A stretch of 58,959 bases of DNA from IMG/VR virus record IMGVR_UViG_2541047708_000006, one strand, 5' to 3'. The stretch is from a virus. Lineage: Duplodnaviria > Heunggongvirae > Uroviricota > Caudoviricetes. Below, in pieces: positions 1 to 57,882 of this stretch. The position numbers were made by a program, and so were the translations under genes. A model generated the notes under the pieces. It ran no database searches. It saw only the letters and a program-made list of their open reading frames with translations, and was not told the DNA's origin. Position 1 is the first letter of the stretch. The number at the start of each line of letters is the position of its first letter.

Positions 1-483
1 ATGACGAAGAAAAAAGCACATAAACCTGGTTCAGCGACCATCGCGCTTAACAAGCGCGCCCGTCACGAATACTTTATCGAAGAAGAGTTCGAAGCGGGAC
101 TTGCCCTGCAAGGCTGGGAGGTTAAATCCCTGCGCGCAGGAAAAGCCAATATCAGCGACAGCTATGTCCTTCTGCGCGACGGAGAGGCATTTCTGTTTGG
201 CGCTAACATCACGCCAATGGCTGTGGCCTCCACGCATGTGGTGTGCGATCCTACCCGTACCCGCAAGTTACTTCTCAACCAGCGCGAACTGGACTCATTG
301 TACGGTCGCGTCAATCGAGAAGGCTATACCGTAGTGGCGCTCTCCCTGTACTGGAAAAATGCCTGGTGCAAAGTGAAAATCGGCGTCGCCAAAGGTAAGA
401 AACAGCACGATAAACGTTCAGATATCAAAGAACGCGAATGGCAGGTGGATAAAGAGCGTATCATGAAAAATGCCCACCGTTAA
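1..483 (+). CDS. smpB: SsrA-binding protein SmpB
   Basis: 160 aa ORF; translation matches recalled E. coli SmpB; immediately upstream of tmRNA gene. Confidence 0.97.
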
Positions 484-697
484 ACCTATATAAGCGATAC
501 TAATCAAATCCTCACCGCGCCTCCCTATCCGGTGGCGCGAATGAACATCTTATCGACTGTCAAATCTGACACAGATGTAGCCATCCCATTGCTTAATCGA
601 AAAAAAATCATACTATGCAGGCGCTAATTCCAGGATGATAACGCCTTTTGGGCTAGTCATGCTGCTCATAAATCTGGTATACTTACCGTTACACATT

Positions 698-1060
698 GGG
701 GCTGATTCTGGATTCGACGGGATTTGCGAAACCCAAGGTGCATGCCGAGGGGCGGTTGGCCTCGTAAAAAGCCGCAAAAAATAGTCGCAAACGACGAAAA
801 CTACGCTTTAGCAGCTTAATAACCTGCTTAGAGCCCTCTCTCCCTAGCCTCCGCTCTTAGGACGGGGATCAAGAGAGGTCAAACCCAAAAGAGATCGCGT
901 GGAAGCCCTGCCTGGGGTTGAAGCGTTAAAACTTAATCAGGCTAGTTTGTTAGTGGCGTGTCCGTCCGCAGCTGGCAAGCGAATGTAAAGACTGACTAAG
1001 CATGTAGTACCGAGGATGTAGGAATTTCGGACGCGGGTTCAACTCCCGCCAGCTCCACCA
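698..1060 (+). ncRNA. ssrA: tmRNA (transfer-messenger RNA)
   Basis: Starts GGGGCTGATTCTGGATTCGACGGG, contains tag-reading-frame region, ends GGTTCAACTCCCGCCAGCTCCACCA; matches recalled E. coli ssrA. Confidence 0.95.
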
Positions 1061-1215
1061 ATCATGATTGGACGGTGTAAGGACAACACCAACAAAAACA
1101 GGATGTTAGCAGTCTCAGCAGGACACCGACCAGACGGTGAGGGGACAAAAAAGGATACGCAAAGGAGCCGCGGCTCTTTAGTTACATGAAAGCCCGCTAA
1201 TGCGGGCTTTTTTTA
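1034..1215 (+). repeat. Left copy of ~180 bp imperfect direct repeat (ssrA 3' end plus downstream terminator region); prophage attL
   Basis: Same sequence with scattered mismatches recurs at 57273-57451; about 90 percent identity by eye. Confidence 0.8.
1189..1215 (+). terminator. Rho-independent terminator downstream of ssrA
   Basis: Hairpin AAGCCCGC-TAA-TGCGGGCTT followed by T-run. Confidence 0.7.
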
Positions 1216-1228
1216 TGGGATAAGACAT

Positions 1229-2149
1229 ATGAACCAACTGCAAGAAATCATTCAGATACTAAGTACTGGTGATGAAGGCACAACAAATGCTCTCATAAAA
1301 ACGAAGATCCTTCTTTTCTCTATCGGGAAAAAGGAGCTTGCTGCATGGGTAAATCATGAGATAAACGGTTATCCTGATTCAGTTTCCCTTCCAGATTATA
1401 GAATTGTTGGCACAAGAATTCTTGCAGATCTGAATAACGGCGTTCGCCTATATAGAGCTTTTCCGTTACCGATTGGTTATCTAAGTGAAGATGACTATGA
1501 AGATGCTACAACCAGTAATGTGAGGCTTTCAATCAGTCAAATCGAAGAACTAGTGACCAATGCTGGTGATAGCCATGCTCTTCAGCAGCCAATTCCTTTA
1601 GATTACGCGTTAGTTAAGTACTGCAAAGGTATCGATAAAGGCTATGAGTTAACACGCTGTTATAAAGAGATCGCACTACATAACTTTACTTCCATCTTAA
1701 CTCAGGTCAGGTCACGGCTACTTGATTTTATACTTGAACTTTCTGATCAAGTTTCTGAAATACCAGATGAGAAAAACATGACAGAAAAACTTAAAAATAT
1801 CGACACGTCTTCATTATTCCATAACTCAATTTTTGGAGACAATACTGTCATAAACTTCGGAAATGAAAACTCATTTTCTGTGAATAACCACGTCGTAAAA
1901 AACGACACTGAGTCATTAAAAGAGTTTCTCTCAGCTCAGGGGTTCCCTAAATCTGATGTTAACGATTTAGAAATTGCTATTGGTGAAGATGGCCCGATAG
2001 CTAACAAACGTGGTGAATATGGTCAATCTGTTAGTAAATGGTTGGCAAATATTGCGAGTAAAGCAGCCCATGGTACTTTGGGCATAGGAATAGCTGCTGC
2101 AACTCAAGCAGCTACAGCGGCTCTGAAAAAATACTACGGTCTATCATAA
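1229..2149 (+). CDS. Hypothetical AT-rich cargo protein (306 aa), possibly abortive-infection-like
   Basis: Long ORF with ATG 14 bp after terminator; AT-rich codon usage unlike core genes; no motif I can assign firmly. Confidence 0.7.
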   Translation: MNQLQEIIQILSTGDEGTTNALIKTKILLFSIGKKELAAWVNHEINGYPDSVSLPDYRIVGTRILADLNNGVRLYRAFPLPIGYLSEDDYEDATTSNVRLSISQIEELVTNAGDSHALQQPIPLDYALVKYCKGIDKGYELTRCYKEIALHNFTSILTQVRSRLLDFILELSDQVSEIPDEKNMTEKLKNIDTSSLFHNSIFGDNTVINFGNENSFSVNNHVVKNDTESLKEFLSAQGFPKSDVNDLEIAIGEDGPIANKRGEYGQSVSKWLANIASKAAHGTLGIGIAAATQAATAALKKYYGLS

Positions 2150-2152
2150 CCA

Positions 2153-2197
2153 TCATGGGGTGTCGGGGGTCGGAGGTTCAAATCCTCTCGTGCCGAC
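2153..2197 (+). other. tRNA-Pro 3' fragment (anticodon-stem/T-arm/acceptor 3' strand), likely att remnant
   Basis: TCATGGGGTGTCGGGGGTCGGAGGTTCAAATCCTCTCGTGCCGAC matches recalled 3' part of E. coli proL tRNA; 5' half absent, CCA absent. Confidence 0.55.
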
Positions 2198-2212
2198 AAA
2201 AAATCCCTTAAG

Positions 2213-2240
2213 AACCAGCCTATTATGGCTGGTTTTTTTA
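2213..2240 (+). terminator. Rho-independent terminator
   Basis: AACCAGCC-TATTAT-GGCTGGTT hairpin followed by T7. Confidence 0.65.
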
Positions 2241-2407
2241 TGATTGTTTTTTATGCGGAGAAATACCGGGGAATAATTGGGGTAAAACACCTTTAGGCTA
2301 TTCACTTAGCCTACCACCATCAAAATCTTTCCGAATGTATCCATCTCTTTTTTCTTATGCAGCTAAAACGAAGTCTTGATACTGTTTATTTACACAGATA
2401 AGAATAA

Positions 2408-2427
2408 TACTGTCTACAAACGCAGTA
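2408..2427 (+). promoter_or_regulatory. Putative LexA (SOS) box
   Basis: TACTGTCTACAAACGCAGTA fits TACTG-N10-CAGTA; 14 bp upstream of dinI-like ATG at 2441. Confidence 0.55.
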
Positions 2428-2440
2428 CAAAAGAAGTGTT

Positions 2441-2688
2441 ATGCGTATTGAGATCTCCATAGCCAAAGACAAAATGACCAAATGCCAAACGGTGCTGTGG
2501 ATGCGTTAAAGGAAGAATTAACTCGACGCATCAGTAAGCGTTATGACGATGTAGAGGTGATCGTAAAAGCCACCAGCAACGATGGCCTTTCTGTTACGCG
2601 CACCGCCGATAAAGATTCAGCTAAAACTTTTGTTCAGGAAACTCTGAAAGATACCTGGGAGTCTGCTGACGAGTGGTTTGTTCACTAA
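2441..2688 (+). pseudogene. dinI-like gene with apparent -1 frameshift after codon 14 (ORF track shows only 2482-2688)
   Basis: ATG at 2441 encodes [14 protein letters not shown] (DinI N-terminus) then stops; the rest of the DinI-like protein (PNGAVDAL...[10 protein letters not shown]) continues in another frame from 2482; shift lies in an A-run. Confidence 0.55.
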
Positions 2689-3296
2689 TTAACACGTAAA
2701 ATCGGTAACGGCTGGAAATCATTCAATACTCGCACTATCGGAAGTTCACCAGCCAACCGCAGCACGTTCTTGCATACGACGTGTCTGCGGTTTTTCAACC
2801 ATTTAGATACAGCACTCTCATCGCATTCATTCTTCCGCATTAAAGTATATATGACCATATCACCTTAATATTTTTCTTCTTCAGATAAAAATTGTTATCT
2901 ATGTATACTTTTAAACCGAATCCGTGTAGAGTCTCTACCTAAGTTAGTTCACAGTTACCCCTTCAGTTTGCGCCATTAACCTCCTGACTTTTGCCGCTAT
3001 CTGTAAGCATTCCTGTATACCTGAAACTACAGGGGTCATCTACGAACTTTAAGAACACCCAGGATAAAAATTGTCAACTATATTATATATAACACCATAC
3101 TAATTCGAGGTTATATGAACAGCATACTGATAATCACTTCACTACTTATCATATTCAGCATTTTTGGTCATGCTCTAATAAAATTAGGGATTGGCATATC
3201 CAATAACCCGGACAAAACCGATGTATAAGTCAACATATCCTTAATCAGACATACAATATTGCAATGAAAACCAATAATATTTTAAGGAATATCTTC

Positions 3297-3530
3297 ATGA
3301 AATCAAAAGACACCCTAAAGTGGTTCCCTGCGCAGCTTCCTGAAGTCAGAATTATCCTGGGAGATGCTGTCGTGGAAGTAGCAAAACAGGGAAGACCTAT
3401 CAATACCAGAACATTGCTTGATTACATTGAAGGAAACATAAAGAAAAAGTCATGGCTGGATAACAAAGAATTATTACAAACAGCGATATCAGTTCTTAAA
3501 GACAACCAAAATTTAAATGGTAAAGTGTAA
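3297..3530 (+). CDS. YdfK/YnaE-like small protein
   Basis: MKSKDTLKWFPAQLPEVRIILGDAVVEV... resembles recalled prophage proteins YdfK/YnaE that sit next to pin in Qin/Rac; RBS AAGGAA before ATG 3297. Confidence 0.7.
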   Translation: MKSKDTLKWFPAQLPEVRIILGDAVVEVAKQGRPINTRTLLDYIEGNIKKKSWLDNKELLQTAISVLKDNQNLNGKV

Positions 3531-3904
3531 CCCCCCTGAAAAATAATTTTTTAATGCATTAAAAAATATCAACAACTACGTTATCCCTCAACAACCTACT
3601 TTTTTACCATTTTTCCACTTTAACAACATTTTGCTCCACTTTTCCACGACCAAACAACTTGAAATCTGGTTAAAATAACATACAACACTATTATTCGTCT
3701 TCCTCGAGTCCGCCCGGATTTCGAAAAACAAACCGAGTTAAAGCCATTTTTCAAAAAATCGATTTTGGGTTACACCAAAATTACGGGACTGCATCCGAAT
3801 TCGTTTATTTTCGAACGTATACATACAAATATGTACAATAATAAGCGAAATAATTTTTGGATATGCATTATGATATGTACACCAATTTCGTATAGAGTCT
3901 CACT

Positions 3905-4495
3905 ATGTCTCGAATTTTTGCTTACTGTCGGATATCAACTCTGGATCAGACCACCGAAAATCAACGCCGGGAAATCGAAAGTGCAGGTTTTAAAATCAAA
4001 CCTCAGCAAATAATCGAAGAACACATTAGCGGCTCAGCAGCAACCAGTGAGCGTCCTGGTTTTAACCGGTTGCTTGCTCGCCTGAAATGTGGTGATCAAT
4101 TGATTGTGACAAAACTGGATCGCCTTGGTTGTAATGCAATGGATATCAGGAAAACAGTGGAACAACTGACCGAAACAGGTATCAGAGTGCATTGCTTAGC
4201 ATTGGGGGGCATTGACCTGACCAGTCCAACAGGAAAAATGATGATGCAAGTAATTTCAGCAGTCGCTGAATTTGAACGAGACCTTTTACTTGAACGCACT
4301 CATTCCGGGATAGTAAGAGCCCGGGGCGCAGGGAAACGTTTTGGTCGACCACCTGTGTTAAATGAAGAACAGAAACAGGTGGTATTCGAACGAATTAAGT
4401 CAGGTGTAAGTATAAGTGCCATTGCCCGGGAATTCAAAACCTCGCGGCAAACCATTTTAAGAGCCAAAGCAAAACTTCAGACACCTGACATATAA
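3905..4495 (+). CDS. pin: Serine recombinase, DNA invertase (Pin/Gin/Hin family)
   Basis: 196 aa; N-terminal catalytic serine motif YCRISTLDQ; C-terminal HTH; adjacent to tail fibre genes. Confidence 0.9.
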
Positions 4496-4722
4496 AAAAT
4501 AATCTCGGTGTGAGATGCTTTACGTCTTCCAAGCCCCCTTCCTTGCCGTAAATGGAAAGATACATCTAATTATAGAATTTATATGTTTTACCCTACGGCA
4601 GTGCTGGCCATTCAATATCCTGTGCAGTTGACGTATCAACACGGTTCAGCAACACCCGATACTTTTTCCAGGCTTCCAGCAACGGGGTTTCTTCCTCCGT
4701 TGCATATACAGCTCACCTTTTT

Positions 4723-5016
4723 TCACCCACGATTAACCAACAGCCAGACCAGCAGACACGCCACCACCGGCACAGCAAAATCCATCAGGCTTGCCACATC
4801 CCAAGCACGCGGATCAAAACCGCCCCACCACGGCATATTCATTCGCTTGCCATGCCCGAACATTTCAATCCAGCGATATTCTGCCTGGGTATGTTCACGC
4901 GCAATGAAGAACGTACAACCGGCTATCGCTCCGTAAGCCCAGTTTCCGGTAAAAAGACCAACCAGTATCTGCGCAGCCACAGCACAAAGTGCATGAAGTA
5001 AGGGGCTTATATCCAT
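4723..5016 (-). CDS. Small putative membrane protein
   Basis: 97 aa with two hydrophobic segments; downstream of tail fibre operon. Confidence 0.5.
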   Translation of the reverse strand: MDISPLLHALCAVAAQILVGLFTGNWAYGAIAGCTFFIAREHTQAEYRWIEMFGHGKRMNMPWWGGFDPRAWDVASLMDFAVPVVACLLVWLLVNRG

Positions 5017-5028
5017 TATTTCCTCCTT

Positions 5029-5307
5029 TCAGCTCCATTCCCGAAGCGGTGTTTCCAGCTCCACGACATAATCAGAGAATACAGAAACATCAAACAAGTC
5101 ATCAAGAATGCGAATGTTGACAAAATAACCATCATTCCGGATACAGACAGGTTCTCCCTCTTCTGTTACCCCTGTTTCTGTGTAGGTGAAACCAATTTCA
5201 TCAACTAACAGTTTATTCTGGAGGTCTTCATCTTCCGCCCAGCCAAGAGATGACAGGAAGGCCTTAAACTGCAGTTTGTCATAAAACTTCAAAGTTAAAT
5301 CTTTCAT
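5029..5307 (-). CDS. Small protein downstream of tail fibre gene (possible fibre chaperone)
   Basis: 92 aa ORF overlapping the stf stop by 4 nt (coupled); not a canonical Tfa. Confidence 0.5.
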   Translation of the reverse strand: MKDLTLKFYDKLQFKAFLSSLGWAEDEDLQNKLLVDEIGFTYTETGVTEEGEPVCIRNDGYFVNIRILDDLFDVSVFSDYVVELETPLREWS

Positions 5308-7370
5308 ACGACCTCTTTTAATTGCCTGTCATTTAATTCTTTATGCCATATGCGGAAATTGCGAATATGGCCAAACAGATGTCGTTCTCCAGTATTCGTC
5401 TGCCCTCCAAATCGGATATTTTTATCAGCGGTCACGCCATTATATTCACAATAAACTTCATTAACCGCTTTACCATTTGTCACCACATGAAAGTGACCAT
5501 CAGCTTTTGCAATACATCCAAATGTGGTTTTCTCTGCAAATACATCTGTCGCTGCGCTATTAACATACGAGCCTGAAGGGTTTGACAGACTCATATATAA
5601 CTTACCACTACCTCTGTTGATTGCTGCAATTGCTGATTGCCCGGTATTGGCTGCTGCTATATCCCACACGCGGGGTGCGGCGTTTGGTGCAATATCCCAG
5701 TTTTTATGAATCTCAAGTAAAAAAGTAAATGGTAACTTATAAAGATTATTTCTGGTGGGGATACTAACCAAATCACTGGCTCTTGTCGTTGCGCTGCCTC
5801 CTGAAATAATAAATGATGATACACACGGCCCATTCTCTACTTGTGGGGTGGCAAGATAAATATAGTCACCAGATACTGTTGCCCCACCCTGCTCAGGAGA
5901 ATACTGTATCTGAGAGCCTATTTTTAACTCACCATCAATTGCCTGAATCGTTGCCTCTGCAAAAATCCAGCCTGTGGTCTTATCCTTCCTGACTCGTGCC
6001 GTAATTCTGCCGGCAGCACCACCTGTCATATTAATTTCAAGCGTTTGCGTATCAATGTACGCATCGCCAAGAAAAGTTGTTGCACTACCATCATACTTAT
6101 CAAACCGTATACGTAACCTTACCTGTCGTTCTGTTTTAAAACGGCATGAGGTTGTCACGTACTTGTTATCGCCTGAGACATCAACTGACTTTGTTGCAGC
6201 AATTGATGCCATATTAATAGCCGAAGTTTGCCCAACCAGAGAATCGTTGCAGACAAACTTTCCATAAGTAAAACCAAAACTATCCGTCCCGGTTTCGGGC
6301 ACATCCATGTTTGATGACTTCCCCCAGCTGGCTGGACTTTCCGAATTGAGCATGTAGTTCGTTCTTTGTCCCTCAATAAGCAGGCCATCACACTCAAATC
6401 GCGGCTCATTAATTTCCGCCGTTTTCAGTTCGCCAGATTTGTTGATATATGTTGCCGTTGATGCGCGACTGAAATTAACCTGTTTATCACTGGCGACCTG
6501 AACCACATCGTCACCAATAGCTATTTTTTTATAGCCCGGAGAAAAACCCGCAATCATATCCAGTGAATCGTTAAACGGTATCCACACATCAGGCAGCGGC
6601 GGCACTATATTCGCATAGGGCTCTGCAGTCACTTCCGCTGCGACTTCTGCGCGGTCTGCCGCCTTTTCAGCCCGTGTCGCTGCCGACAGAGCCTCATCCT
6701 TTTTCTGCCCGGCCTTTGTTGCGTCTGCTGCGGCCTCCCGCGCTTTTGTGGTGGCGACTCCGGCATTTTCAGCGGCTGACTCTGCATTACGGCGGGAAGC
6801 CTCTTCACTGTCTGCGGAGGCTTCTTCTGACGCACGGGCATTTGTCTCTGAACGTTCTGCCGCTGTTGCTGCGTTTTGTGCGGCTGTTTTTGAAGAAGCT
6901 GCCGCTTTCGCGCTGTTACCTGCATTCGTCTCTGATGTTTTCGCCGCATTCCTGGACGATGCCGCTGCTGTTTCTGATTTCTTTGCTGCCGCTGCGCTCT
7001 GAGAGGCGGCTTCAGCGTTGCGTGCCACCTCTTCCACCATCTTTTCAAAACGATACAGTGCCTCCGGACGAACATCATCTTCTGTTGCAGCGCCCAGAAA
7101 ATCATTCAATGTCCCCGGCTTAGAATCCTCATACACGGTGATAGCCCCGGCATGTGAAGGCGGAAAACCTTCAACCAGCAGGATAACGCTGTACTGGCCA
7201 TACTCGACATCCATGCTGTAACGTCCGGCTTCATCCGGATTTTCTGAGGCCACCGTGTTCACCACAACCGTGGTGCTGTTACGTTTTGCTTTGAGCTGAA
7301 TGGTGCAGTTCTGTATCGGTTTTCCTGCACCGTCTTTCAGCACGCCTGAAATCTGTACTGCCATATTCAC
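5304..7370 (-). CDS. stf: Side tail fibre protein (lambda Stf-like N-terminus, Ala/Ser-rich shaft, divergent C-terminal domain)
   Basis: N-terminus MAVQISGVLKDGAGKPIQNCTIQLKA... matches recalled lambda Stf; low-complexity Ala-rich middle. Confidence 0.9.
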   Translation of the reverse strand: MNMAVQISGVLKDGAGKPIQNCTIQLKAKRNSTTVVVNTVASENPDEAGRYSMDVEYGQYSVILLVEGFPPSHAGAITVYEDSKPGTLNDFLGAATEDDVRPEALYRFEKMVEEVARNAEAASQSAAAAKKSETAAASSRNAAKTSETNAGNSAKAAASSKTAAQNAATAAERSETNARASEEASADSEEASRRNAESAAENAGVATTKAREAAADATKAGQKKDEALSAATRAEKAADRAEVAAEVTAEPYANIVPPLPDVWIPFNDSLDMIAGFSPGYKKIAIGDDVVQVASDKQVNFSRASTATYINKSGELKTAEINEPRFECDGLLIEGQRTNYMLNSESPASWGKSSNMDVPETGTDSFGFTYGKFVCNDSLVGQTSAINMASIAATKSVDVSGDNKYVTTSCRFKTERQVRLRIRFDKYDGSATTFLGDAYIDTQTLEINMTGGAAGRITARVRKDKTTGWIFAEATIQAIDGELKIGSQIQYSPEQGGATVSGDYIYLATPQVENGPCVSSFIISGGSATTRASDLVSIPTRNNLYKLPFTFLLEIHKNWDIAPNAAPRVWDIAAANTGQSAIAAINRGSGKLYMSLSNPSGSYVNSAATDVFAEKTTFGCIAKADGHFHVVTNGKAVNEVYCEYNGVTADKNIRFGGQTNTGERHLFGHIRNFRIWHKELNDRQLKEVV

Positions 7371-53284: not shown

Positions 53285-53392
53285 AAATCAGCACGTACGA
53301 ATTCAAACTCTGCCATAAAAGAACATATAAGTAATTTATTAACATATAGATATAGGTTATATTACAAATTGAAAAATTATTGGAGAGCAACA

Positions 53393-54259
53393 ATGAATCA
53401 AAATCCATTCTCATTCTATGACTTTCTTGGATATTTAATACCAGGTGGTTTTTTTATCCTATTAATGTATTTCTGTGGTTTGACATTCGATCTAGATATT
53501 GTTATTGACTTAAGTGAATTGCTCAGAGGTCAAAGTCAAATCTTTGGCATTTTGAACTACGCTTCAATAGTTATTATATCTTATATAGCTGGACATTTTA
53601 TTTCTATCACATCAGCATTTTTTATCGAAAAATACATGAATAAAGAATTAGGATATCCTTCCAAATATCTATTTAAAAAATTGATAGATACCTCAGAAAG
53701 CATTTGTAGCCCATCATGCGATGAGAGAAGCGCTGATAAAAAAACAAAAATAAAGAATCGCATAATCAAATGCGTATTATGTCCAATAATACTATGGGAT
53801 TTTATAACACAAAAACTATGTTATTCTCAATCTCTACCATTTCATTTAGCTAATACAACATGGTTAATGATCAAAGAAGGTTATGAGAAAAAGTTCATAA
53901 CAAATCGCCAATTATTACAAGATAAAAACGGACTTGATGATGATCTCTTCAGATTGGCATATCATTATGTTTATGAGTTTTCAAAACAACATCAAACAAA
54001 AATTCAAAACTATGTTGCATTATATGGTTTTTGCAGAAACATATGTTTAATCTTTATAATTTCATTTTGGGTATCAGTTCCAACCTTTATTTATCGATTA
54101 TGTACTCATAGTGATTATCTTTATAGTTTACTTTCAATAATGCTTAGCTTTTTCTTCGTCTATGTTTTCTATGTTGGTTTTGTTAAATTTTATAGAAGAT
54201 ATACTTTAGAAGTATTAATGGCATTTGCTGTACTTCAAAGTAACGACACTATTCGTTAA
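53393..54259 (+). CDS. AT-rich multi-pass membrane protein of unknown function
   Basis: Hydrophobic helices at both ends; GGAGAG RBS 5 nt before ATG 53393; low GC. Confidence 0.65.
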   Translation: MNQNPFSFYDFLGYLIPGGFFILLMYFCGLTFDLDIVIDLSELLRGQSQIFGILNYASIVIISYIAGHFISITSAFFIEKYMNKELGYPSKYLFKKLIDTSESICSPSCDERSADKKTKIKNRIIKCVLCPIILWDFITQKLCYSQSLPFHLANTTWLMIKEGYEKKFITNRQLLQDKNGLDDDLFRLAYHYVYEFSKQHQTKIQNYVALYGFCRNICLIFIISFWVSVPTFIYRLCTHSDYLYSLLSIMLSFFFVYVFYVGFVKFYRRYTLEVLMAFAVLQSNDTIR

Positions 54260-54261
54260 TA

Positions 54262-54507
54262 ATGTTGCTCCCGTGTGCAGACGGGATAATGGAGAAACGT
54301 ATGCTGAACCTCGATTGTGTTCCTATCTCAACTTATTGCAAAGAAACTGGCGAAACTCCTGAAGCAATAAACAAACGTGTACAGCGCGGTGTTTGGCGTG
54401 AAGGTGTTCAGGTTTTAAAGGTTGAAGGCGTTAAGGAGAGGTGGATTGATCTTAGTGAGGTTGCAAAATGGGCCAGACAAAACTGCTCAAACTACCGCGC
54501 GGCGTAA
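54262..54507 (+). CDS. xis: Putative excisionase
   Basis: 81 aa ORF overlapping int start; position upstream of int; weak motif. Confidence 0.45.
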   Translation: MLLPCADGIMEKRMLNLDCVPISTYCKETGETPEAINKRVQRGVWREGVQVLKVEGVKERWIDLSEVAKWARQNCSNYRAA

Positions 54508-55640
54508 CAATCAGGAAACACCACCAGGGAGAAACGATCAATATAACTTTCACCTACAAAGGAGTTAGATGTCGTGAGCCGCTTTCCAATCTGGAAGTAA
54601 CACCAAAGAACATTAAATACGCCGAGCGTACACTCGGCGAAATCCATAATAAGATCGAAAGGGGAACATTCATTTATGCAGAATATTTTCCCCGTTCTGC
54701 TCGTTTGAAAATTTTTGGTAATGCTGCTGCAAGCAAAACGGTAAAGATGTACCTAGACGAATATCTTGAAATCTGCGAAACAAGAAAACTTTCACCCTCT
54801 ACGATTGGTGGCTATAAAAAATGCCGTAGTGCGTTAGCCTCACTTCACATTTGCCCTGCAAGTGAATTAACACCAGCAACCCTGAAAGCGTGGATTCAAA
54901 GCCAGAAAACAACCTTAAAAACCATTCGCAACCAGTTATCTTTCCTACGGTCAGCACTTGATGAAGCCGTGACCGATGGGGTACTTCAAATTAACCCCGT
55001 ATCGTTAGTAACAGCTTCGCGCTACCAAAGTGATAAGTCAGAAGCAGAAAGCAGCTATGTGGTTGATCCGCTATCACCAGCAGAAGTTGATGCATTACTA
55101 GCAGCAGCCGGAAACAAACAATGGGAAAATCTGTTCCGGTTCGCCATACATACAGGCCTGCGTAGTTCTGAATTATGTGCCCTACGATGGCATGATATCG
55201 ACTTTGTTGGAAAAACAGCCCATGTTCAGAGCGCAAGTGTTGTCGGAGTTATCAAAGGAACAAAGACAAAAGCCGGTACCCGTAAAGTTGAACTGACTGA
55301 AGAAGCAATGTTGGCGTTGATAAACCAGAAGCCATTTACATTCATGAAGGATGCTACTGTCTTTGAAGATCCAAAGACCAATAAACCCTGGGCAAGTGCT
55401 GATGCAATCAGGAAAAAAGCATGGGTGCCAACATTGCGAAAAGCAGGTATTCGTTACAGAAATCCATATCAAACTAGGCATACATTCGCCACCCGCCATA
55501 TCAGCCGGGGAGCAAACCTGTTTTGGCTTGCAGCTCAAATGGGGCATAAAGGGCCGGAAATGTTATTTCGTCATTATGGTTCATATTTAAAGGAATATGA
55601 CGGTAATACGACCAGCAATATCACAAAAAAAGCCACTTAA
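54468..55640 (+). CDS. int: Prophage tyrosine integrase
   Basis: 390 aa; C-terminal RHTFATRH...GH...FRHYGSY catalytic motifs. Confidence 0.9.
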   Translation: MGQTKLLKLPRGVTIRKHHQGETINITFTYKGVRCREPLSNLEVTPKNIKYAERTLGEIHNKIERGTFIYAEYFPRSARLKIFGNAAASKTVKMYLDEYLEICETRKLSPSTIGGYKKCRSALASLHICPASELTPATLKAWIQSQKTTLKTIRNQLSFLRSALDEAVTDGVLQINPVSLVTASRYQSDKSEAESSYVVDPLSPAEVDALLAAAGNKQWENLFRFAIHTGLRSSELCALRWHDIDFVGKTAHVQSASVVGVIKGTKTKAGTRKVELTEEAMLALINQKPFTFMKDATVFEDPKTNKPWASADAIRKKAWVPTLRKAGIRYRNPYQTRHTFATRHISRGANLFWLAAQMGHKGPEMLFRHYGSYLKEYDGNTTSNITKKAT

Positions 55641-55653: not shown

Positions 55654-56043
55654 TTAGGAGGCTCTCGATTTAAGCATTTCCGTACACTTAGCAAAGAGCC
55701 TCTCAGTTGTTAGAATCGCAACTTCAGACTGTTTAGAAGTGACCGATTGATCAAGTCGATAGTCTGCAACAATCCTCTGAGCTTTAAGTTGACTCAGGAT
55801 AAAACTAATCCCTTTTAGATATCTAGCTTCATATACTTCACTTCCTCTTGAAGCATCACCCTGCAAATAATTGATTAGCCCCTGATGACTGTCTTTCGGC
55901 CCGTTTACCATACAAGGCAAGACATGATGGTAAGCGCCATAGTAGGATCTTGCTATAGCATTTCGATAGCCGATTTCGTCATTACGTTGATGACAGTCTT
56001 TTGCAAAACCGAGAAAATCTTGACTATTAACCGGCATGTGCAA
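55654..56043 (-). CDS. Hypothetical protein, possible HEPN-like fold (second gene of two-gene operon)
   Basis: 129 aa; helical; RSYYGAYHH segment; overlaps upstream gene by 17 nt. Confidence 0.6.
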   Translation of the reverse strand: MHMPVNSQDFLGFAKDCHQRNDEIGYRNAIARSYYGAYHHVLPCMVNGPKDSHQGLINYLQGDASRGSEVYEARYLKGISFILSQLKAQRIVADYRLDQSVTSKQSEVAILTTERLFAKCTEMLKSRAS

Positions 56044-56842
56044 CCCTCCGGGTAATCAGACCTAATTCGGAGATAGCATTCTGCTCAATATGAGTGTCTT
56101 TACATTCAAACCAAACAGTAAAATCTTTACCGACTAAACAATCGTGCTCAGCCATTGAAAAAGCAAGCTCAATATTCATATCAGCGATTTGTTCAGCATC
56201 AGAAGACTTTGTCATGAATACAATCGCATTCACTTTCTCTTCCGAAATATTATAAAAACGCATTCCCGAAAGATGAACCTTCTGAGAATCCATGACATTG
56301 GCTACATTATTGAAAATAAGTTCATATTCTAAACCAGAAAGATCGGCACGTTGCTTAAAGGATTCGACCTGGGAAACAACTTCATCAAAATTGTTGTCCA
56401 TTTTTTCAGGCTCCTTATCTCCGAACAATTTAGAGTATGACTGGAAATACTTCTCCGCCAACGCCATTTTCCCCATAAAGAGGGAGTTTTCATAAGCTTG
56501 AAGATAAATAAACGGGGATACGAAGCTTTCAGCAAGCTTAATGCTTGTTTCAAAGCTTTTCTTCAACGTACCGTAATCTGACAAGAAAACAAGAAAATTC
56601 TTTGCAACAACCTTATTATGGCATACCTGCAAGGAACGCTCAAAGAAGCCTATCGCCTCATTCACTTGACCATGTGCACCATAGACCAACGCTAAAAGAT
56701 AGTCCTCAGAGACAGGATCTCTAATTGCTTCAATCTCACGTAACATCCTTCTAAAGTTAAAGTCATCAATCCTCACTCCATCTTTGAGGTATTTAGTTAG
56801 CCCCGCGCTAATAACTGATGCTTTTTTTGCTGGCTGCAACAT
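56027..56842 (-). CDS. Hypothetical protein (first gene of two-gene operon between int and attR)
   Basis: 271 aa ORF, AT-rich, AT-rich promoter region upstream (56843-57270). Confidence 0.6.
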   Translation of the reverse strand: MLQPAKKASVISAGLTKYLKDGVRIDDFNFRRMLREIEAIRDPVSEDYLLALVYGAHGQVNEAIGFFERSLQVCHNKVVAKNFLVFLSDYGTLKKSFETSIKLAESFVSPFIYLQAYENSLFMGKMALAEKYFQSYSKLFGDKEPEKMDNNFDEVVSQVESFKQRADLSGLEYELIFNNVANVMDSQKVHLSGMRFYNISEEKVNAIVFMTKSSDAEQIADMNIELAFSMAEHDCLVGKDFTVWFECKDTHIEQNAISELGLITRRVAHAG

Positions 56843-57272
56843 TAAAAACCTTATCTTACAAATAGTTGGTAATGATGTTGAATTATTTTTTGTTCTTTAT
56901 GGCTAATAAGATTACATGAAGGGACAACTTCTGGCCACCTTAGAAAACACTCACTTTAGTAACAAGAGTCAATAATATTGTTGACAAATCACAAAAAAAC
57001 AAACTTATCCAAAACAATCTGGTTTATTACAAAGCCTCTGTGCATAAATCTGTGTATAACATCATTTTTACACACATTTTTATAAAAATATTTTTTAGCA
57101 AAAAATGCTATCTATCTCCGAAACTGCAACCACAAACCATTAATTCCAAATGAAACTATTTTAAAATAAATAGTAAGACAGTAACAGGACGGAAAAAGTT
57201 CCGCAAAAGAGCCGCGTGTAAAATCAACAATATTTGGCTATTTAAATTCAATGAATTACATAACTATGGACA

Positions 57273-57451
57273 CGGGTTCAACTCCCGCCAGCTCCACCAA
57301 TCATGATTGGACGGTGTAAGGACTACACCAACAAAAACAGGAAGTTATAAGTCTCAGCAGGACACCGACCAGACGGTGAGGAGACAAAAAAGGATACGCA
57401 ACGGAGTCGCGACTCCCTATGACATTAAAGCCCGCTGATGCGGGCTTTTTT
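57273..57451 (+). repeat. Right copy of direct repeat: partial ssrA 3' end (57273-57299) plus downstream region; prophage attR
   Basis: CGGGTTCAACTCCCGCCAGCTCCACCA then sequence paralleling 1061-1215 with scattered mismatches. Confidence 0.8.
57427..57451 (+). terminator. Rho-independent terminator (duplicate of ssrA terminator)
   Basis: AAGCCCGC-TGA-TGCGGGCTT plus T-run. Confidence 0.6.
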
Positions 57452-57882
57452 ATTGGTCCTGACCCGCCCTGAATAGAATTCATCCAATTACAGTCCAGAC
57501 ATATACAGTATCCCTCAGCTCAGTATCAGCTTCTCGACAAATGGTCACTGTTATTTACCCGTTGCCAGAAAGAGAATAATTTGCCCCCATAGCCAGCCTT
57601 CCTGGAATCTGTATATTCATTAATATTGTTATCGATTCCATCAAGTAACATAGGTTGGATGCGATTGATCTTACTCACATTAGTCGACACGGAACTCAGT
57701 AAGTTGAACTCTGAAAAAGCAGTTTAAATAGCATTTAAACAAATGCCACCAGTTCGAAAAAGAGTATAAGCACACTTAATATATTGTTTTAATTATTCAT
57801 TTCCTTTCAACCCAATTCTTATCCCTCACATTATTTGTTATTAATTTGTTGTTTTTGATCACAATAAGAAAACAATATGTAA

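Follow-up and report, generated by a model that had tools for sequence, protein, structure and literature searches.

The open reading frame (ORF) at positions 1229-2149 (+ strand) of a 58,959-nucleotide stretch of viral DNA (Caudoviricetes; IMG/VR record IMGVR_UViG_2541047708_000006), referred to here as the window, is probably a stand-alone gene of the AbiTii family: a prophage-encoded defense gene of the abortive-infection type, carried as cargo in a slot on the attL side of its prophage. The window is the smpB-ssrA region of Escherichia coli CFT073, matching CFT073 assemblies at 100% identity by megablast, and the ORF is the first gene of the ~56-kb prophage that resides at ssrA in that strain. 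This ssrA island has been listed as Ecoc48X (PMC10107115, which cites Williams 2003). The 306-residue product belongs to the AbiTii family and is built of two modules, the second of which recurs on other proteins. It has no partner gene, and it lies in a slot whose content differs from one prophage to another.

An earlier reading of the window, made from its letters without database searches (the sequence-only reading), had placed the gene in no characterized family. This claim does not stand, since residues 4-192 of the product match the Pfam AbiTii family (PF18864) with a score of 116.1 bits (gathering cutoff 27.6; E = 3e-33), covering positions 3-184 of the 189-position profile. Likewise, the PADLOC AbiTii model (PDLC02334) matches the 306-residue protein with E = 4.5e-33, so that the scan with defense-gene models which that reading had proposed also makes the family assignable. 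The name is already present in RefSeq, where newer annotation of the gene gives "AbiTii domain-containing protein". A scan of the whole protein against Pfam and NCBIfam found nothing besides AbiTii, with no Response_reg match, and a homology search with the N-terminal domain alone recovered the same architecture only.

The lactococcal AbiT abortive-infection system consists of two proteins, AbiTii and AbiTi, the latter a predicted endoribonuclease (PMC13064643). Anantharaman et al. recognized the AbiTii domain in 2013 as a novel domain of the alpha+beta type that has a conserved glutamate (PMC3710099). In bacteria other than Lactococcus it is joined at its C-terminal side to HEPN RNases (c2405 and Ymh families), and a role as the sensing or targeting part has been proposed for it (PMC3710099). 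The AlphaFold2 (AF2) model of the CFT073 protein, with a mean predicted local distance difference test score (pLDDT) of 79, shows an N-terminal domain of three helices, six strands and a long helix (pLDDT 76-91), in agreement with the published alpha+beta fold. The residues K26, E44, Y48, Y57, R58, R163, D166 and E170 of this domain are invariant, and E44 and E170, both of which are invariant among 40 diverse homologs, are candidates for the published conserved glutamate. The conservation of K24-T25-K26, E44, Y57-R58 and the QVRSRLLDFxLE helix suggests that the surface of the N-terminal domain binds a ligand or nucleic acid.

The C-terminal ~115 residues lie outside the Pfam AbiTii model (189 positions). 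Residues 184-306 match phrog_16090 only (E = 2e-75), a family of no assigned function. A profile of this C-terminal part recovers 1,779 clusters at 50% identity, the majority of which are the same ~300-residue AbiTii fusion. The module is also found on the unrelated N-termini of proteins P0153, P0218, P0227, P0238 and P0141, and profile comparison confines their similarity to columns 187-306, which indicates that the C-terminal ~115 residues are an independent, conserved and mobile domain. In the AF2 model the linker at the start of the module is a low-confidence beta-hairpin (pLDDT 34-43), and the four-helix part that follows ends in a hydrophobic helix rich in Gly, Ala and Ser, and then YYG. 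We also observed that the segment FGDNxxIxxGxxNxQxVxN (residues ~202-220, nucleotides 1832-1888) is among the best-conserved segments of the family, yet it has pLDDT below 45 in both monomer AF2 models. Judging from these models, the segment may fold only upon oligomerization or partner binding.

Of the remote homology searches and structure prediction that the sequence-only reading had suggested, AF2 is confident in both folded parts, and the C-terminal module has no match in the PDB, where sequence and profile searches returned chance-level matches only and pointed to no specific fold. A HEPN identity for the C-terminus was considered and dropped, as the module has no match to a HEPN hidden Markov model (HMM) and the family alignment holds no invariant His or Arg in it (the c2405 His and the Ymh Rx4-6H are absent). 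A transmembrane effector was also considered. Hydropathy of the module is under the transmembrane threshold and no clear transmembrane segment is predicted, so this candidate is not supported by hydropathy and is kept only as a low-confidence guess.

Since the C-terminal module is located where relatives have AbiTi or HEPN effectors, it would probably be the effector part of a self-contained protein in which sensing or binding of a phage cue would fall to the AbiTii domain. Catalytic signatures are absent from the module, which does have a beta-prone conserved segment and a small-residue-rich terminal helix, and for this reason our guess is that it would act non-enzymatically, through oligomerization and/or membrane perturbation. 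This specific mode is weakly favored, and we put it forward as a tentative proposal. A more far-reaching version of it, which we regard as doubtful, would make the module a new and widespread non-enzymatic immune effector that oligomerizes when a sensor triggers it and then kills the cell or halts its growth, for example through damage to the membrane, and that in enterobacterial prophages owes a constitutive, low level of expression to its link with the ssrA transcript. The module itself is found in at least 1,779 protein clusters, on four or more unrelated N-terminal domains.

It is unlikely that the protein is instead a sensor or adaptor only, with the helical C-terminal module serving in homotypic interaction or as an adaptor (Death-fold-like or effector-associated-domain-like) that recruits an effector or a host factor encoded elsewhere. 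What speaks for an adaptor is a small, helical, non-catalytic module shared by proteins with differing N-termini, and the need of lactococcal AbiTii for a second protein. A further point is a weak match of the first two C-terminal helices of P0218 to the death-effector domain of PEA-15 (phmmer, single sequence, E = 0.018), but the similarity is lost with the family profiles A1 and A6. A relation to the DED, CARD or Death folds was therefore dropped, and the match is no more than a lead.

The genomic surroundings of the gene likewise argue against an adaptor that depends on a second protein. No ORF of at least 60 residues lies between ssrA and the AbiTii gene or before the terminator that follows the gene, no flanking gene matches the PADLOC AbiTi model, and an AbiTi partner is absent from all of the ~80 contexts inspected. 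The neighbors at homologous loci in Escherichia, Citrobacter, Yersinia, Vibrio, Kangiella and Amphritea are all different. At 70 species-level loci we compared the nearest ORFs on either side, 135 proteins in all, with Pfam and PADLOC and found no neighbor family that recurs at more than two of the 70 loci. A conserved partner gene, neither adjacent nor recurrent, was dropped as a candidate. The mobility of the gene as a single-gene cassette, in an integron (the Vibrio cholerae homolog is a superintegron cassette) and in the terminator-flanked prophage slot, argues further for autonomy. Some of the neighbors of homologs elsewhere are pAgo/SIR2, DpdF, OloA, PsyrT, mad2 and PD-lambda-2.

There is little doubt that the ORF is a real and intact gene. 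It runs from an ATG to a TAA (2147-2149) without an internal stop, and more than 300 homologs of 302-306 residues align with its product end to end. The ratio of nonsynonymous to synonymous substitution rates (dN/dS) is 0.06-0.14, and the value of 0.14 between two E. coli alleles at 93% nucleotide identity indicates that the gene is under purifying selection. The alternative of a gene in decay, or of an ORF that arose by chance in the AT-rich junk separating att fossils, is effectively refuted by this conservation. Att fossils do surround the slot, and the neighboring DinI-like genes are pseudogenes in several strains; against these points stand the dN/dS values, the confident AF2 models of both folded parts, and a gene that is intact and of conserved length from Escherichia to Chloroflexota. 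The composition of the gene is AT-rich and atypical, as had been noted from the letters, with a GC content of 38.7% and a third-codon-position GC content (GC3) of 30.6%, whereas the GC content is 48.3% across the window and 51% in smpB.

The relatives are widespread and scattered. In a scan with one genome per species we found at least 184 species-level relatives, which belong to the Proteobacteria, Bacteroidota, Chloroflexota, Planctomycetota, Acidobacteriota, Nitrospirota and other phyla. Within E. coli the gene is present in 28 of 5,426 complete genomes. In IMG/VR, 32 proviral contigs carry it, and in ~21 of these it lies within 3 kb of a contig end.

Homology to other ssrA prophages (L005 from E. 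coli HS and L006 from E. coli N54) stops at 1212/1213 and resumes at 2149/2150, with inserts of 876 bp, 936 bp and 2,737 bp. The proposed cassette, with remnants of attachment sites on both sides, is borne out by these breaks, between which different strains carry different genes. In N54 the slot holds PD-T4-3 (full-length PADLOC match, E = 7e-137), which is experimentally active in defense, its native host included (bioRxiv 10.1101/2024.12.20.629700). The presence of this validated defense gene in N54 supports the further proposal that the attL-proximal position is a slot for defense cargo. Two observations concern the other occupants: the restriction endonuclease (REase)-domain protein of N54 also matches the PADLOC Aga_Helical-REase models, and the two genes in HS, encoding 153 and 122 residues, form a candidate defense pair without a known family.

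A non-defense role for the prophage appears quite unlikely, be it anti-defense, an option raised in the sequence-only reading, a part in controlling induction or lysis, or an influence on the physiology or virulence of a uropathogenic E. coli host. The gene is att-proximal and stands beside genes of the lysogenic-conversion type (DinI-like, YnaM, YdfK), and it is absent from sequenced virulent phages, all of which would suit such a role. However, the family is defined by an abortive-infection protein, the slot of the sister prophage holds PD-T4-3 together with a REase-domain protein, and the family is also widespread in chromosomes outside prophages and occurs in an integron, a poor fit to a function in the phage life cycle. 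Between defense and anti-defense, we favor defense because of the membership in the AbiTii family.

Several points weigh against an abortive-infection-type defense function. A defense phenotype has been obtained only for the two-gene lactococcal AbiT, whose partner is absent here; we found no experimental test of the present architecture in the literature that mentions AbiTii, and no paper on PF18864. A tblastn search of 50,697 sequenced phage records found no relative. The means of expression discussed below is something that we infer. Finally, many distant homologs lie amid housekeeping-looking genes with no tRNA gene or integrase nearby, at loci that bear neither a mobile nor a defense signature. 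The sequence-only reading had taken occurrence of the same gene at unrelated non-mobile loci as evidence against a cargo gene, and on this count the outcome is mixed: distant homologs of ~38% identity do occur at such loci, as in Amphritea, where the gene lies between two GNAT genes with no mobile signature, whereas all of the enterobacterial copies examined are at prophage ends.

These loci raise the alternative that the gene encodes a housekeeping or regulatory protein which prophages acquired by chance. Records from Kangiella, Pseudoalteromonas, Moritella and Nevskia label homologs as "response regulator receiver protein", and the neighborhoods in Amphritea and in many metagenome-assembled genomes look like housekeeping ones. 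We nonetheless consider this alternative highly unlikely, as the protein has no Response_reg or other domain besides AbiTii, the gene is carried by only 28 of 5,426 complete E. coli genomes, its distribution is patchy and its composition is atypical. A stand-alone defense gene is our preferred explanation.

We next describe the borders of the slot and of the prophage; the coordinates of the features are collected in Table 1. The 28-nucleotide core formed by the 3' end of ssrA recurs near the far end of the window with one mismatch, where no copy would be expected by chance. A further ~150 nucleotides beyond the core, terminator included, are also repeated (1029-1218 versus 57268-57456). The two copies of this flank are not the same, however: 1061-1213 shares only ~91% identity with the native flank distal to ssrA, now displaced to 57300-57456. 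In K-12 and in E. coli C the native flank is found at the distal end of the ssrA island, adjoining ypjA. Because the ssrA-side copy differs to this extent from the native flank at the distal end of the island, the comparison indicates that the trailer and terminator beside ssrA in CFT073 are the phage's own mimic. The terminator itself is strong, as the hairpin at 1188-1211 has a folding free energy of -19.3 kcal/mol (z = -4.05) and none of 200 shuffled sequences was as stable. The sequence-only reading had described the gene as lying directly after the ssrA terminator; the adjacency holds, with the ATG 14 nucleotides past the T-tract of the intrinsic terminator behind ssrA, while the terminator turns out to be the prophage-borne copy and not the native one.

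Table 1. Features of the window around the AbiTii gene and contents of the homologous slot in other ssrA prophages (window positions unless a locus is named).
Feature	Position	Strand	Evidence or remark
smpB	1-483		
ssrA (tmRNA), integration target	698-1060	+	ARAGORN; Rfam RF00023, 295.8 bits
attL: 28-nucleotide ssrA 3' core, left copy of direct repeat	1033-1060	+	Second copy at 57272-57299
Putative prophage-borne mimic of native ssrA trailer, with intrinsic terminator (hairpin 1188-1211, U-tract to 1214)	1061-1228	+	
AbiTii N-terminal alpha+beta domain, residues 1-183	1229-1777	+	PF18864; PADLOC; AF2 pLDDT 76-91
Linker with motif LFxxxIFGDNxxIxxGxxNxQxVxN, residues ~184-222, start of mobile module	1778-1894	+	Alignments A1, A6
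Four-helix part, residues ~223-306, and stop codon	1895-2149	+	phrog_16090; pLDDT 85-90
Putative fossil proL-type att arm: tRNA-Pro(GGG) 3' 45-48 nucleotides (2150-2197) and proL-like terminator (2210-2237 and T-run); right slot border	2150-2245	+	
LexA box CTGT-N8-ACAG (2382-2397) and DinI-like gene (2482-2688), conserved right flank of slot	2382-2688	+	PF06183, E = 7e-20
Tyrosine integrase at far end of prophage	54468-55640	+	ORF list
attR: second ssrA core (57272-57299), then displaced native ssrA trailer and terminator	57272-57456	+	
Slot content, CFT073, c1-17 and strain 3985			AbiTii gene
Slot content, E. coli HS	L005 4101-4933		Two consecutive genes, 153 and 122 residues, no Pfam or PADLOC match
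Slot content, E. coli N54	L006 2635-4788		DpnII/MboI-type REase-domain protein, 97-residue ORF, PD-T4-3

On its right side the gene is followed, 1-4 nucleotides after its stop codon, by a 3' copy of the tRNA-Pro gene proL of 45-48 nucleotides with a terminator of its own. The report of a tRNA-Pro 3' fragment and a terminator within 4 bp of the stop was accurate, as 2153-2197 is identical to the part of the K-12 proL tRNA-Pro(GGG) that runs from the anticodon loop into the acceptor stem; mutations have altered the CCA end, and the terminator follows at 2210-2237. By megablast this stretch matches tRNA-Pro in 5,422 genomes; the Rfam tRNA model gave no match, the fragment being too short for it, and the identification was made by megablast and alignment. 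The right border as a block (tRNA-Pro fragment, terminator and DinI-like gene) is present in ~250 genomes; the DinI-like gene accompanies the tRNA-Pro arm in 247 genomes. In strain VTB96926v the block sits at the genuine proL gene, which indicates that the right border in CFT073 is a fossil att arm of the proL type. In Yersinia proxima (L016 8125-8145) a LexA box and a DinI-like gene likewise follow the AbiTii gene. The older CFT073 record, like those of several further strains, lists the DinI-like gene as a pseudogene with a frameshift.

The left flank and the gene appear to move as a unit. The flank travels with the AbiTii gene in L002, L007, L016 and L026, and no fewer than three different prophage backbones begin with this pair of flank and gene. 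In Citrobacter, Pseudescherichia and Yersinia (49% amino acid identity) the tmRNA gene is followed by a flank of ~170 nucleotides with a terminator, and the ATG comes 14-20 nucleotides later. The 28-nucleotide ssrA core precedes the AbiTii cassette in L002 at a site away from ssrA, and in strains 25-07338 and 2013C-4991 the core, the flank and the gene form an unrecombined attP-like junction inside a lambdoid prophage sited elsewhere, surrounded by SMEK, AAA-ATPase/S8-peptidase and helicase genes.

Other genes near this junction merit description. The prophage of Shiga toxin-producing E. coli (STEC) type seen in L002 (1817-7585) and L137 has, on the far side of the attP-like junction, a SMEK-domain gene and a pair encoding an AAA-ATPase and an S8 peptidase. 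Downstream of the AbiTii gene in that STEC-type prophage lies a helicase pair of the STM2766/STM2767 type, and together these genes make up a dense candidate defense island beside the att site. In the window, 98 nucleotides after the DinI-like gene (within 2696-2800) are ~89% identical to the stretch directly upstream of the unrecombined core (L002 7882-8000; L137), and in CFT073 this stretch is then followed by a degenerate core-like GCGGTTTTTCAAC. These similarities may mark a fossil second att junction, in which case 1061-2793 would formerly have been a separate element. With a separate small element at 1061-2793 ahead of an older prophage in mind, we looked at 2794-3300 and found it to be generic lambdoid mosaic, present in 2,803 genomes.

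How the gene would be expressed was examined with a consensus-based promoter scan. The only promoter-like site on the + strand upstream of the gene is at 654-683 and is the ssrA promoter; no sigma-70-like promoter was found on the + strand in 684-2375, although weak promoters could escape a scan of this type. Terminators flank the gene on both sides, and the 14-20-nucleotide spacing of the ATG behind the terminator is kept in Escherichia, Citrobacter and Yersinia. Since no promoter-like site precedes the ATG and this spacing is conserved, it is plausible that the gene is expressed in the lysogen by low-level read-through from the very strong ssrA promoter.

Additional candidate cargo lies elsewhere in the prophage. 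Between the integrase and attR, at 55654-56842 (- strand), are two overlapping genes of 129 residues (weak match to PADLOC HEPN_IX, E ~ 1e-3) and 271 residues (weak TPR match), which could be a second cargo or a toxin-like pair at the prophage end opposite the AbiTii gene. A hydrophobic protein of 296 residues with a weak match to PADLOC Csx27 (E = 1.4e-5) is encoded at 53369-54259 (+ strand), shortly before the excisionase/integrase region. A Hin/Pin-type serine invertase (3905-4495) stands beside tail-fiber-assembly fragments and a tail-fiber gene (3905-5310) and constitutes a tail-fiber host-range inversion switch. A neighborhood of invertase and tail fiber likewise follows the AbiTii gene in Citrobacter (L007).

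AbiT is among the least understood of the classical abortive-infection systems; the mutations by which phages escape the lactococcal system lie in the major capsid protein and in early genes. While the AbiTii family itself is already known, the solo form in which an unclassified and widespread C-terminal module takes the place of the RNase is new. The E. coli version is a single gene in a genetically tractable host, its RNase partner replaced by a compact module, and it is a convenient entry to two questions: what cue the AbiTii domain senses and how the C-terminal module acts. The locus is also a clean case of a prophage defense slot bordered by att-site mimics, which helps to explain how cargo is exchanged between unrelated backbones. 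Should the gene prove to be just another Abi protein, the assignment would be a useful annotation and no surprise.

The slot resembles known prophage defense hotspots and morons, such as the P2/P4 hotspots and lambdoid b-region cargo like PD-T4-3, in being a variable position between conserved flanks at a prophage end, with terminator insulation, atypical composition and swappable occupants, one of them a validated defense gene. It differs in that its flanks are att-site mimics, the left one a phage-borne ssrA trailer and the right one the 3' half of a fossil proL, each with a terminator, and in that the CFT073 gene apparently has no promoter of its own.

The protein itself is most readily compared with the plasmid-borne AbiT of Lactococcus lactis (AbiTi + AbiTii). 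Its N-terminal 180 residues fall in the same Pfam and PADLOC family, and each of the two genes is AT-rich, rides on a mobile element and has a presumed abortive-infection role. In contrast to the lactococcal system, the CFT073 protein has no AbiTi partner, here or at homologous loci, possesses an extra conserved C-terminal module of ~115 residues, and is carried by a prophage of a Gram-negative host in place of a lactococcal plasmid. The AbiTii-HEPN fusions (c2405 and Ymh; PMC3710099) share with it a single polypeptide in which an N-terminal AbiTii domain is joined to a C-terminal module in the effector position, and they too are stand-alone and widely scattered in bacteria. Unlike these fusions, the CFT073 protein has a C-terminus with neither a HEPN match nor the invariant His/Arg, matching phrog_16090 only.

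Single-protein Abi systems of the AbiZ or RexB type serve as a working analogy only, in which a sensor is combined with a small, helical, partly hydrophobic and non-catalytic C-terminal part; we detected no relationship in sequence or fold to these proteins, and the CFT073 protein has no clear predicted transmembrane segment. Were the C-terminal module to be a new effector as considered above, it would resemble the HeLo/Bell or CC-type cell-death domains in its logic and not in its ancestry.

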